Source: a virus
Lineage: Duplodnaviria; Caudoviricetes
Reading direction: 5' to 3' (one strand)
DNA: 64,000 nt
IMG/VR virus record: IMGVR_UViG_2974752881_000001
Span: 3,360-67,359 of that record
The notes under the pieces are model-generated. The model did no database searches. It saw nothing but the letters and a program-made list of their open reading frames with translations, and had not been told where the DNA came from. Below, in pieces: positions 2,199 to 50,320 of the stretch. The first letter of the stretch is position 1. Each line of letters starts with the position of its first letter. The position numbers and the translations under genes are program-made.

Positions 2199-2551
2199 CA
2201 GACATCGAATCGCTCGACGACCTGCCCTCGTTCGCGGTGGAGTCCACCACGACCAAGGTGGTCATGTCGATCGACGGAGCCCCGGACACCCGCGGCAAGT
2301 ATCACGTGAAATCGGTCCGGCCGAGCAAGGCCGTGCTGGTGTTCGAGGGAGCCGGAAACCAGCCCTGGAACCAACACCCCCGGGTTCGCATCAGCCTCAC
2401 CGGTTGGCAGGTGCGCAAGGACGGATCGGCCGGACAGAACGAGACCACGTTCCTCGACGGCGAGTTCGAGGTCCTGCCCTGGATGCTCGAAATGATCGAG
2501 ATCGCCCGGCCGACAACGCACCCGAAGGCCGACGACGAGGTGATCGGATGA
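2195..2551 (+). CDS. hypothetical protein
   Basis: ATGA overlap, SD AAGGA (MTDIESL...). Confidence 0.75.
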   Translation: MTDIESLDDLPSFAVESTTTKVVMSIDGAPDTRGKYHVKSVRPSKAVLVFEGAGNQPWNQHPRVRISLTGWQVRKDGSAGQNETTFLDGEFEVLPWMLEMIEIARPTTHPKADDEVIG

Positions 2552-2988
2552 CCGAGGAGCTGACGTGGGAGGCAGTATCGCGTGGCGTACCCAAGGTGTA
2601 CGCCGACGTCCTGGAGGTGGTCTGGAATCACCGCGAGGGCACGCGCGACGGCGTCGAACTGATGGCGGGAGTCGCCGCACTGGCCGAGAAGGCCAAGGCC
2701 GTGATGGAGATGGGGGACCCGAACGCCGACCCCGACCACCCGAACCGGTGGACCAACGATTCGTCCCTCGGCGCCAAGCTCTACTGGGAGGACTTCCAGG
2801 AGCTCGGTCCCGACCACCCCCGGACCCAGTTCTGGATCCACTTCTTCGCCGGAAACATTGCGCACGCTGGAGGAATGCTGCTTCGGCTGGCAGCCATGTA
2901 CCCCATGGACCCGTTGGGGGAGGGGGAGGGCTTATGGACGGCGGCCGAAGACGACGTCGTGCAGTGGTGCGGGGTCGATCCCGCATGA
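2548..2988 (+). CDS. hypothetical protein
   Basis: ATGA overlap, SD GAGGTG (MTEELTW...). Confidence 0.75.
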   Translation: MTEELTWEAVSRGVPKVYADVLEVVWNHREGTRDGVELMAGVAALAEKAKAVMEMGDPNADPDHPNRWTNDSSLGAKLYWEDFQELGPDHPRTQFWIHFFAGNIAHAGGMLLRLAAMYPMDPLGEGEGLWTAAEDDVVQWCGVDPA

Positions 2989-3239
2989 CGCAGTCGGCCC
3001 CGCAGAGCGGGAGTCGCAGCTCGGCGCGCAAGGCCGGACTGACTGGCTCGAAGCGGTACCGCGTCTTCGTCAAGAAGCTCGTGGCGGCCGGGGCCGAGGT
3101 GCGCAAGCCGATCGGCCAGGGTCACCCCCGCATTTTCTACCGCGGCGAGTTCGTCGCATCCCTGTCATGGACCCCCTCGGACGGACGTGCCGAGAAGAAC
3201 GTGCTCGCGAAGTGTCGTCGAGCAGGAATGGATATTTGA
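2985..3239 (+). CDS. hicA: HicA-like mRNA interferase toxin (84 aa)
   Basis: KKLVAAGAEVRKPIGQGHPRIFY...SWTPSDGRAEKNVLAKCRRAG matches the HicA dsRBD-fold pattern (G-x-H, TPSD-x-R-x2-KN). Confidence 0.7.
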   Translation: MTQSAPQSGSRSSARKAGLTGSKRYRVFVKKLVAAGAEVRKPIGQGHPRIFYRGEFVASLSWTPSDGRAEKNVLAKCRRAGMDI

Positions 3240-48935: not shown

Positions 48936-50127
48936 TCAGAACTCGCCGCGACGTTCTTGCCGGTGAGCGGCATAGGGATCGCGGACCTGGTAGGCCACCG
49001 ACTTGATCAGATCGAGGTCGGCGTCCTGCTCGTCGGCCAGGCACAGGTCGTAGAAGTCGCAGTCCCACGTGCAGTCGCGGGTCGGGTTCTTGTACAGCGG
49101 GAGAGTGCCGTCCCGCATGAGGTTCATCGTCTGGACCTCGTCGGCGATGTGCTGGATCTGCTTGCGGCGCTCCTTCGAGGTCCGGAACACCGGCTCACGG
49201 TGAAACCGCGGCGCGGGCTGCTTCGTCGAGACGTCCCCGAGCACGGTCAGCTCCAGATCCTCCGATAGCTCGACCAGGTCGGCCAGCTTCATCTTGGTCA
49301 GCTCCTTCTCCCGAGCTGGCCCCTCCTCGTCGATCCACACCCGCTCCGGCACGATCGTCGTCTTGGCGTCGTGCTCCAGGATCGCCTTGACGTAGTGCTT
49401 CCGGATCGGCTTGTTCGTCGCGAGCCCCTGCTCGTTGACCGGCCGTTCGTCCGGCGGGGCCTTCATCAGGAAGTTGTAGAGGATGCCGTTGATCCGCTCC
49501 CGCTGGCCGAGCACGCCCTTGCGTCGCAACACGTTGTCGGCGACGGCCCAGTAGCCGCCAGCCTGGTCATCGAGCGGCAGGTGGTTGGTCTTGATCGACC
49601 GGGCCGTCTTGTGGTCCCACAGCCAGATCCGATGCGTCCCGAGGTTGCGCGCGACGATGTCGAAGGTGCCGTGGAACTTCGCGACCGGCGTCCGGTCGCC
49701 CTCGGCCGCGTTGCGGGGGATGCGCACGCCGAAGGCCTGCTCCGGCGACAGGATCTCCCACTCGTCGTCGTCGCCGTACTCCACGAGGTAGTTGTCCAGC
49801 ATCGCCAGGCCGACGGCCTCAGCATCCATCACCACCTGCTCGGAGTCGGCGAACAGCGCGCCGGACTTGATCTCGACCCGGACCAGCTCGGTGATCCCCT
49901 GGCAGTACTCCTCCCAGGTTTCGCGCATGTCCCGACCCCGCTTCGTGCCAGGGATGTACCACTGCTCGGCGGCCAGGTGGATGCCGGTGCCGAACCACAG
50001 CGGGACCTTGCGCTTCTTCGACTCCAGCCCGTCGCGCCACCCCCACCACCAGCGTTGCGGATCTCGGGCACCGTTTGAAGTCCTTCCGCTCAGAACCACG
50101 GAGCAGAGGAAGATCAGACGATGCCAT
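48936..50127 (-). CDS. Cas4/RecB-like PD-(D/E)xK exonuclease, reading frame broken near codon 21
   Basis: N-terminus MASSDLPLLRGSERKDFKRCP (SD GGAGG, ATG 50127) is out of frame with QRWWWGWRDGL...FDIVAR...DHKT...CTWDCDFYDLC; 7 extra nt at 50058-50064. Confidence 0.85.
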
Positions 50128-50320
50128 TGAGATCACCTCCGATCGGTACGTGAGACCAGTCCTTGCCGGTCTTGATCCTGCTGATGGTCACTTGGTGAAC
50201 TCCATAGGTTGCCTCGTCGCCCGTCCAGTTGTGATGCCCCTCCTCCCCCAGAACCCCTCTCGGCCGAGCCTTGCGCTCGGACCCGCGGAGCAGCGGGAGA
50301 TCGACGACGTCAGAAGTCAC
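50114..50320 (-). pseudogene. original exonuclease 5' end fused to the decayed C-terminal remnant of an HNH homing endonuclease
   Basis: VTSDVVDLPLLRGSERK followed by GEEGHHNW...YGVHQVTISRIKTGKDWSHV; no catalytic HNH core. Confidence 0.7.

Follow-up and report, generated by a model that had tools for sequence, protein, structure and literature searches.

To our knowledge, natural translational bypassing has been published for few systems only, namely the T4 gene 60 family, the yeast mitochondrial byp elements and the terminase of phage phiHau3. The locus described here belongs to a Gordonia phage of the family Zierdtviridae, subfamily Emilbogenvirinae (IMG/VR record IMGVR_UViG_2974752881_000001, genome of 67,359 bp). 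The window, i.e. the whole stretch of 64,000 nucleotides (nt) that was analysed, covers most of this genome (positions 3,360 to 67,359 of the record). On its minus strand, the gene of a Cas4-family exonuclease (cas4) is broken near the start by the sequence CCG-AGAT-CCG, located at the right-hand edge of a cassette with the remnant of an HNH-like, probable homing-endonuclease gene. With a probability of roughly 0.7 the break constitutes a programmed translational bypass site on a mobile endonuclease cassette; we infer the hop, its efficiency and the role of the AGA codon from the comparisons given below. A full-text literature search retrieved no paper describing the cas4 gap site.

The bypass of T4 gene 60 belongs to the mobile element MobA. 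It starts with a stop or hungry codon, possesses matched take-off and landing codons, and has been kept after loss of the endonuclease, the gap protecting against the element's own nuclease (bioRxiv 10.1101/2022.08.31.505936). The likeness to cas4 is drawn on the logic of the cassette (Manning and Atkins, bioRxiv 10.1101/2022.08.31.505936; Atkins et al. 2016, PMC5009743): in both cases one mobile cassette unites the gene of an HNH-type endonuclease (a probable one at cas4) with an untranslatable insert in the neighbouring host gene, and supplies new terminal coding sequence and leaves the host gene usable. Likewise, a stop or hungry codon follows the take-off codon, the take-off codon and the landing codon match, and the gap is retained despite decay of the endonuclease. 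The Gordonia locus differs in the host gene (a Cas4-family exonuclease instead of a topoisomerase), in its occurrence in high-GC actinophages, in a first gap codon that is mostly a rare sense codon, and in that cas4 is not split into two polypeptides, only 21 codons being rebuilt. Its gap comprises 2-6 nt (5-9 nt moved) versus 50 nt in gene 60, and therefore leaves no room for a take-off stem-loop or an internal Shine-Dalgarno (SD) sequence.

According to the phiHau3 report (Antonov et al. 2023, PMC10732093), the large terminase gene of this Streptomyces phage and of two prophages contains a UUA-led bypass of 7-10 nt with mass-spectrometry support in E. coli. Terminase and cas4 share a short, frame-shifting insert led by a rare codon in an actinophage gene, its position in an invariant protein motif and a predicted mRNA structure alongside; the authors of that report favour bypass over frameshift on the same ground as applies here, i.e. 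that extra residues are not tolerated. Gene and host genus differ, as does the leading codon (AGA, in relatives AUA, UUA or UAG, against UUA only). The link to an endonuclease cassette is explicit at cas4, whereas the searched passages of the report mention neither HNH nor homing for phiHau3, and, in contrast to the mass spectrometry in E. coli, the cas4 hop is predicted from sequence. A rebuilt start enclosed by a hairpin distinguishes cas4 from both gene 60 and phiHau3.

The proposed event resembles the hops at stop and hungry codons described for E. coli constructs (Weiss 1987; Gallant and Lindsley; Kane 1992; reviewed in PMC5009743), with a peptidyl-tRNA re-pairing at a matched codon few nt downstream and a slow codon in the A site. 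These constructs are synthetic or heterologous and of low efficiency, whereas the cas4 site is natural, conserved and would be required for a phage enzyme. MobE in nrdA of phage Aeh1 is an endonuclease inside a coding sequence, and the new termini it adds keep the gene functional. In nrdA the product assembles from two polypeptides that are translated separately, whereas most cas4 variants lack a start for a second polypeptide. Shorter counterparts of gene 60 with matched take-off and landing codons have long been presumed (2016 recoding review, PMC5009743). If cas4 is such a case, synthesis of an iron-sulphur (Fe-S) exonuclease would rest on one of the shortest natural bypasses proposed so far, and the phages concerned can be cultured, with Gordonia terrae 3612 as a tractable host. 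The locus would also form the second link between an endonuclease and a bypass, and support the view that bypass gaps evolve as self-protection of homing cassettes while the host gene must work.

The cassette and the coding gap in cas4

The nearest database phage is Patio with ~96% identity. The features of the locus, in window coordinates and all on the minus strand, are as follows.

50270..50320, minus: left (original) cas4 start copy, GTG plus 16 codons, VTSDVVDLPLLRGSERK; matches the cas4 start of Patio
50114..50269, minus: remnant of the HNH-like, probable homing-endonuclease gene, from alignment with the genes of 167 amino acids (aa) in GTE5, Turuncu and HubbaBubba; weak match to PHROG 59
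50136..50140, minus: SD sequence GGAGG of the rebuilt cas4 start, read from the sequence
50060..50134, minus: imperfect hairpin of 75 nt enclosing the mini-exon, minimum free energy (MFE) -37.3 kcal/mol, z -5.7
50065..50127, minus: rebuilt N-terminal mini-exon of cas4, 21 codons with ATG at 50127-50125, from translation, MASSDLPLLRGSERKDFKRCP
50097..50099, minus: GTG in the landing frame, a possible alternative start giving MVLSGRTSNGARDPQRWWW; private to the source phage
50061..50064, minus: coding gap AGAT, whose first triplet AGA (50064-50062) would be in the A-site position at take-off
50058..50060, minus: landing codon CCG, followed in the sequence by the resume codon CAA (50057-50055) and CGC TGG TGG TGG
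48936..50057, minus: body of the Cas4-family PD-(D/E)XK exonuclease, 373 codons from QRWWW to the stop; +1 frame open

The SD sequence of the rebuilt start is kept as GGAGG, GGGGG or GAGG in all cassettes. The mini-exon holds the invariant first Cys, and its last codons are TGC (50070-50068) and the take-off codon CCG (50067-50065). Past the gap, frame 0 of the window leads into an Arg-rich nonsense product of 102 aa. The left start copy now forms the beginning of the open reading frame (ORF) of the endonuclease remnant (50320-50114), in which the N-terminal (ARPRGVLGEEGHHNWTGDEATY) and C-terminal (GVHQVTISRIKTGKDWSH...) ends of the endonuclease are joined in frame near 50204/50203. About 100 codons are deleted, the Cys4/His core among them, and the ORF ends with the stop TGA at 50116-50114. 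Such an in-frame loss of ~100 internal codons implies that the endonuclease is dead in the source phage; the coding gap is still present. The deletion sits at a TAC/TAT microhomology near 50204, and despite it the ORF, its stop and the overlap with the rebuilt cas4 start remain.

Phage genes that carry an HNH or homing-endonuclease annotation are 27-34% identical, over 82-92% of the length, to the full-length cassette gene of GTE5 (Orf56), Turuncu and HubbaBubba (167 aa). This cassette gene possesses an invariant CxxC...CxxCH core, a C-terminal helix-turn-helix (Z 5-6) and a match to PHROG 4160 (unknown function). On these sequence and model comparisons the gene is probably a homing endonuclease, a weak assignment.

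The motif TGC CCG AGAT CCG CA is identical in the source phage, GTE5, Turuncu and HubbaBubba, and among ~60 related database phages only these four have an HNH-like gene within the 5' end of cas4. In a sample of nine cassette-free phages from at least five genera, all read KDFKRCPQRWWW with a single CCG, and the others of the ~55 cassette-free relatives align 7 nt shorter at the site. The cassette-free allele of the Patio/GRU1 type has the sequence TGCCCGCAACGC around the insertion site. The distribution of the cassette is sporadic, at one fixed codon: GTE5 has it, its congeners GRU1 and Flapper are without. GTE5 and Turuncu were the only records retrieved by exact and degenerate pattern scans of IMG/VR and of JGI metagenomes. 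The 10-mer CCGAGATCCG has two further, ordinary copies, one coding for A-E-I-R in a helicase and the other an antisense match.

Extra variants were obtained by protein searches with the endonuclease and subsequent contig look-ups in independent assemblies from ENA, JGI and Logan. These further cassettes lie in front of PDDEXK_1 genes, and their endonucleases are 50-91% identical. The inserts, written as gap and landing codon, are the following.

AGAG-CCG, 7 nt: L019
UUAG-CCG, 7 nt: L016
AGAGG-CCG, 8 nt: L011-L014, from four sequencing runs
AUAGG-CCG, 8 nt: L009, L010
UU-ACG, 5 nt: L027, L028
UAGGUG-CCU, 9 nt, in frame and starting with a stop: L029

Including AGAU-CCG, seven gap types are found at one codon, and inserts of 5, 7, 8 and 9 nt lead into all three frames; the sole in-frame insert (9 nt) opens with a stop codon. 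The take-off codon is CCG in all of them. The landing codon is CCG in eight of the ten distinct sequences (window included), CCU in L029 and ACG in L027, the latter with two of three bases matching. A hop restores KRCPQ(R/Q/A/K)WWW in all seven gap types. The left cas4 start copy of L016 and L029 extends to the same Cys/Pro codons, and the insertion point of the cassette therefore coincides with the gap.

The initial annotation had read the site on the minus strand as CCG-agat-CCG with an SD-led N-terminus out of frame with QRWWW, and sequence and translations agree with this. Removal of 7 nt from the window restores KRCPQRWWW as it had expected, exactly the reading of the 96%-identical Patio (TGC CCG CAA CGC). 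The mobile element that it had placed next to the break is real, the ORF at 50320-50114 consisting of the old cas4 N-terminus and both ends of the HNH-like gene. Its idea of the 7 nt as an inactivating duplication left by this element is not borne out, the 7 nt being the right-hand edge of the cassette itself and no separate scar. Since the gap is shared by four cassette phages and gone in cassette-free relatives, an assembly error or private mutation, also considered there, drops out; the four isolates and several independent metagenome assemblies rule it out. Close relatives without the 7 nt, which had been taken as a sign of such an error, do occur (Patio and others), but merely since the whole cassette is missing from them.

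The mini-exon is part of the cassette, and its variation consequently arose within cassettes. Four independent pairs of mini-exons display 29.4 synonymous and 22.6 non-synonymous differences (non-synonymous to synonymous ratio, pN/pS, 0.25; binomial P 1.2e-6). This purifying selection is found in frame 0 only, the other two frames having a ratio >1, and spans cassettes with endonucleases as little as 50% identical. Across cassettes, Ser12 is encoded by AGC, TCC, TCG and TCT, and Arg14 by AGG, CGA, CGC and CGG. Selection downstream of the gap was assessed from ungapped close pairs, the all-pairs ratio of non-synonymous to synonymous rates (dN/dS) being affected by an indel and a partial contig. 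Past the landing codon, 51 synonymous and 4 non-synonymous changes separate GTE5 from Turuncu; in the 54 codons ahead of any canonical start the counts are 10 and 0. L009 and L010, with identical cassettes, differ downstream by 6 synonymous and no non-synonymous changes. All downstream ORFs are intact.

The metagenome contigs L009 and L010 share 897 identical bases, which run from the contig start across the upstream flank, endonuclease, mini-exon and gap to 60 nt past the latter. The following 100 nt differ at 7 sites, all of them synonymous, and the transition resembles the edge of a recombined or co-converted tract, which homing would be expected to leave. In L029 (~700-790) the left copy is a separate ORF of 28 codons before the endonuclease, which ends with KRCPGGGYG and a stop, and is unfused. 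Related endonuclease genes without a coding gap are located before cas4 in L015 (626-1051) and L018 (327-788), free-standing in the former and fused to the left N-terminus copy in the latter. The junctions of these two gapless loci differ (KRCPTRWQW and KRCICRWEW, respectively), and their altered residues may provide another route of escape from the nuclease.

The hairpin around the mini-exon

The outer stem of the hairpin is formed by GAUCUC (50134-50129), just 5' of the AUG, and GAGAUC (50065-50060), an arm that consists of the last take-off base, the gap and the first landing base. In the core stem GGCAUCGU pairs with ACGGUGCC, and this 3' arm adjoins the take-off codon. The hairpin is present in all ten cassettes (MFE -30 to -38 kcal/mol, z -2.3 to -5.7), and eight cassette-free cas4 starts possess no such hairpin (z -0.6 to +1.5). 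Its cells are paired in 92.8% of cases versus 30-45% with the partner slid, and at one core position the pair varies between C-G, U-G and A-U. Folding of 141-nt windows resulted in no significant z-score; only the hairpin-sized segment is significant.

A re-forming hairpin that pushes the ribosome forward has been proposed for gene 60 (bioRxiv 10.1101/2024.12.09.627546), and the cas4 hairpin, by re-zipping behind the ribosome, may help a forward push in the same way. Alternatively to a role in the hop, it may make initiation at cas4 depend on the endonuclease ORF being translated, or the complementarity between the gap and the bases before the AUG could be the trace of a template-switch origin.

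Decoding of the gap variants and competing explanations

Each variant was translated under four schemes (frame 0, +1, -1 and hop). Frame 0 is nonsense in every variant, and the frame-0 read-through ORF was rejected as a gene, its products of 79-141 aa being unconserved and mutually unrelated. Only AGAU and AGAG are resolved by a +1 shift at the A site, which in UUAG (L016) and AUAGG (L009) hits UAG. A -1 slip works only for 5- and 8-nt inserts and fails for the 7-nt class, and the 9-nt insert of L029 would need read-through or restart under conventional decoding. The sole scheme fitting all variants is a hop of Pro-tRNA from CCG to a Pro-like triplet ahead of the Gln codon. A programmed frameshift of a single direction (+1 of the prfB/Ty3 type, or -1 at a slippery site) was rejected, as no one direction fits all members. 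Neither the window nor the whole phage genome contains a tRNA gene, which rules out a phage-encoded suppressor or quadruplet-reading tRNA; transcriptional slippage is ruled out by the lack of a homopolymer run at the site.

Each of the seven gap types opens with one of the codons AGA, AUA, UUA and UAG. TTA, ATA and AGA are the first, second and sixth rarest sense codons in the ORFs of the source phage, with 0.12, 0.35 and 1.44 occurrences per 1000 codons, respectively.

The following course of events is proposed. An HNH-like homing-endonuclease gene would have inserted at the Cys-Pro/Gln codons near the cas4 start and taken over the old start, its cassette bringing at the 3' end an SD sequence, an ATG and a duplicate of the first 21 codons, recoded synonymously; with its own rebuilt start on the cassette, the exonuclease could still be made. 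This rebuilt N-terminus would recreate the target at the right junction, exactly at the gap position, which would be the reason for the untranslatable bases (AGAT plus the second CCG) at the cassette end: the gap would protect the carrier from its own endonuclease, whose substrate would be the cassette-free allele. Translation of the mini-exon would proceed as far as CCG (Pro21), where the ribosome would stall, its A site being occupied by the rare AGA. The peptidyl-tRNA-Pro would then un-pair, the mRNA would slide by 7 nt until re-pairing on the second CCG, and decoding would restart at CAA to yield the wild-type KRCPQRWWW. It is also fairly likely that actinophages hold a second, independently evolved family of homing-endonuclease cassettes with its own programmed ribosome hop, characterised by a 21-codon start inside a hairpin and a 2-6-nt gap that is led by a hungry or stop codon, splits the target and would be skipped by peptidyl-tRNA-Pro. 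With seven gap variants that cover all three frames, and with alleles that lack the gap or the cassette, the locus represents a natural mutant series, and the minimal signals of bypass (hungry codon, Pro take-off, upstream hairpin) are therefore directly testable.

The initial annotation had proposed a 4-nt hop, which is correct for the gap (AGAT), but the peptidyl-tRNA would move 7 nt, i.e. gap and landing codon. Its description of AGA as rare stands (1.4 per 1000 codons, sixth rarest sense codon of the source phage), and its further suggestion, that full-length nuclease would depend on the supply of tRNA-Arg(UCU), is conjectural. The hop is the best-supported reading, since ten cassette sequences repeat the pattern of matched CCG codons with a slow first codon, and the mini-exon evolves as coding sequence. 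What recurs of the pattern are the matched codons and the slow codon, but gap length and frame vary between cassettes.

Several points weigh against a bypass on a homing cassette. AGA is rare, not extreme, and L011 (3112-3120) and L019 (~770) use it for the Arg of QRWWW, two codons past the landing site; it is therefore decodable there as a normal Arg codon, which tempers the hungry-codon argument. Take-off and landing codons display no covariation, the CCG/CCG of eight of the ten sequences could stem from a 3-nt duplication, and one variant lands on ACG with a match of two in three. A landing-frame GTG makes a restart possible in the 8-nt and 9-nt variants, and the source phage has its private one at 50099. 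Covariation in the hairpin is modest, and its arms are also under coding constraint. The divergence downstream of the gap may partly be older than the arrival of the cassette. As for the cassette gene, Pfam and NCBIfam searches detected no nuclease domain in it, and structure matches are weak: the model has a predicted local distance difference test (pLDDT) score of 59.5, the top Foldseek match is Cas5-HNH with E 0.034, and the VIA match to GVE2 HNH has Z 4.1 and a root-mean-square deviation of 4.0 over 64 aligned residues.

Lineage-specific conventional recoding, resulting in a Cas4 with two or three extra residues, is an unlikely substitute for the hop. It would combine a +1 shift at CCG-AGA-U, by which Ty3-like out-of-frame entry into the A site at a hungry codon leads to KRCP-DP-QRWWW, with a -1 shift onto C-CCG for the 5- and 8-nt inserts and read-through or restart for the 9-nt insert. 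Each of these shifts yields an open frame in its own variant, hungry codons promote single-base shifts (PMC5009743), and the C preceding the take-off codon makes CCC available for a -1 slip. Three or four mechanisms would, however, be required at one conserved site, +1 reaches UAG in L016 (UUAG), and re-pairing of peptidyl-tRNA-Pro on CGA is poor. Moreover, the junction RCPQ(R/Q)WWW is invariant in nine cassette-free phages, and extra residues are therefore unlikely to be neutral.

It is quite improbable that no recoding takes place, i.e. that the exonuclease is made from a landing-frame start minus its first 21 residues while the 21-aa peptide is useless or acts in trans. Candidate starts would be the GTG at 50099, a GTG within CGGTGCC or after UAG, and the internal ATG annotated in three phages. 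Split genes due to homing endonucleases are known (e.g. nrdA of Aeh1), database annotators picked internal starts in GTE5, Turuncu and HubbaBubba, and landing-frame GTGs exist in the source phage (50099), the 8-nt variants and L029. These GTGs are not conserved, however, and the residues they add evolve freely (pN/pS >1 in the landing frame). In the landing frame of GTE5, Turuncu, HubbaBubba and L019, codon 54-55 is preceded by no ATG, GTG or TTG, and the UAG immediately preceding the landing codon of L016 makes restart impossible there. In addition, the 54 codons before the annotated ATG are the ones with 10 synonymous and no non-synonymous differences between GTE5 and Turuncu, and the mini-exon is under strong selection at the protein level, its invariant Cys pairing with the C-terminal Cys triad.

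A dead gene is very improbable, with the 7 nt as a scar (quasi-palindrome-templated insertion or end-joining at the cut site) or sequencing error in a cas4 pseudogene. In its favour, template switching in an inverted repeat would give the complementarity seen between the gap and the bases just 5' of the ATG, the CCG repeat resembles a 3-nt duplication and homing into fresh alleles could leave downstream ORFs looking intact. Against it, four isolates and independent ENA, JGI and Logan assemblies contain the same gap or a variant of it, every downstream ORF is intact, and each gap variant retains a slow first codon and a Pro-like last codon. The inactivating lesion considered in the initial annotation agrees poorly with the long-term selection seen in the 21 N-terminal codons, which reaches across cassettes with 50%-identical endonucleases.

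Gene identities and annotation

The Patio orthologue (96% identical DNA) matches Pfam PDDEXK_1 (PF12705, 6.9e-13) and PHROG 1218 (1.4e-133), and the PDDEXK_1 match begins at residue 17 of the Patio protein, upstream of the position of the break. A Pfam search with three ORFs of the window gave no match, the frame-2 ORF alone having none at E 0.1, and a PDB sequence search with the same frame-2 ORF was likewise without match. The exonuclease possesses one N-terminal and three C-terminal cysteines, the latter as C-x3-C-x5-C at the C-terminus, and KRC is invariant in every sequence examined.

The cas4 genes of GTE5 (L002, 2217-3173), Turuncu (L003, 2211-3167) and HubbaBubba (L004, 2322-3302) are annotated from an internal ATG or GTG. 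The ~75-80 residues that these annotations drop from the N-terminus contain the invariant Cys and the WFGTGIH motif; the annotations are probably erroneous owing to the gap.

Distant relatives of the endonuclease (P0026, P0040) lie at other loci. Members of its family with 31-36% identity are found in L030 (2501-2974), L031 and L032 (both 2501-3130), in settings that comprise the neighbourhood of a lysin-like gene and a prophage-like region with an integrase.

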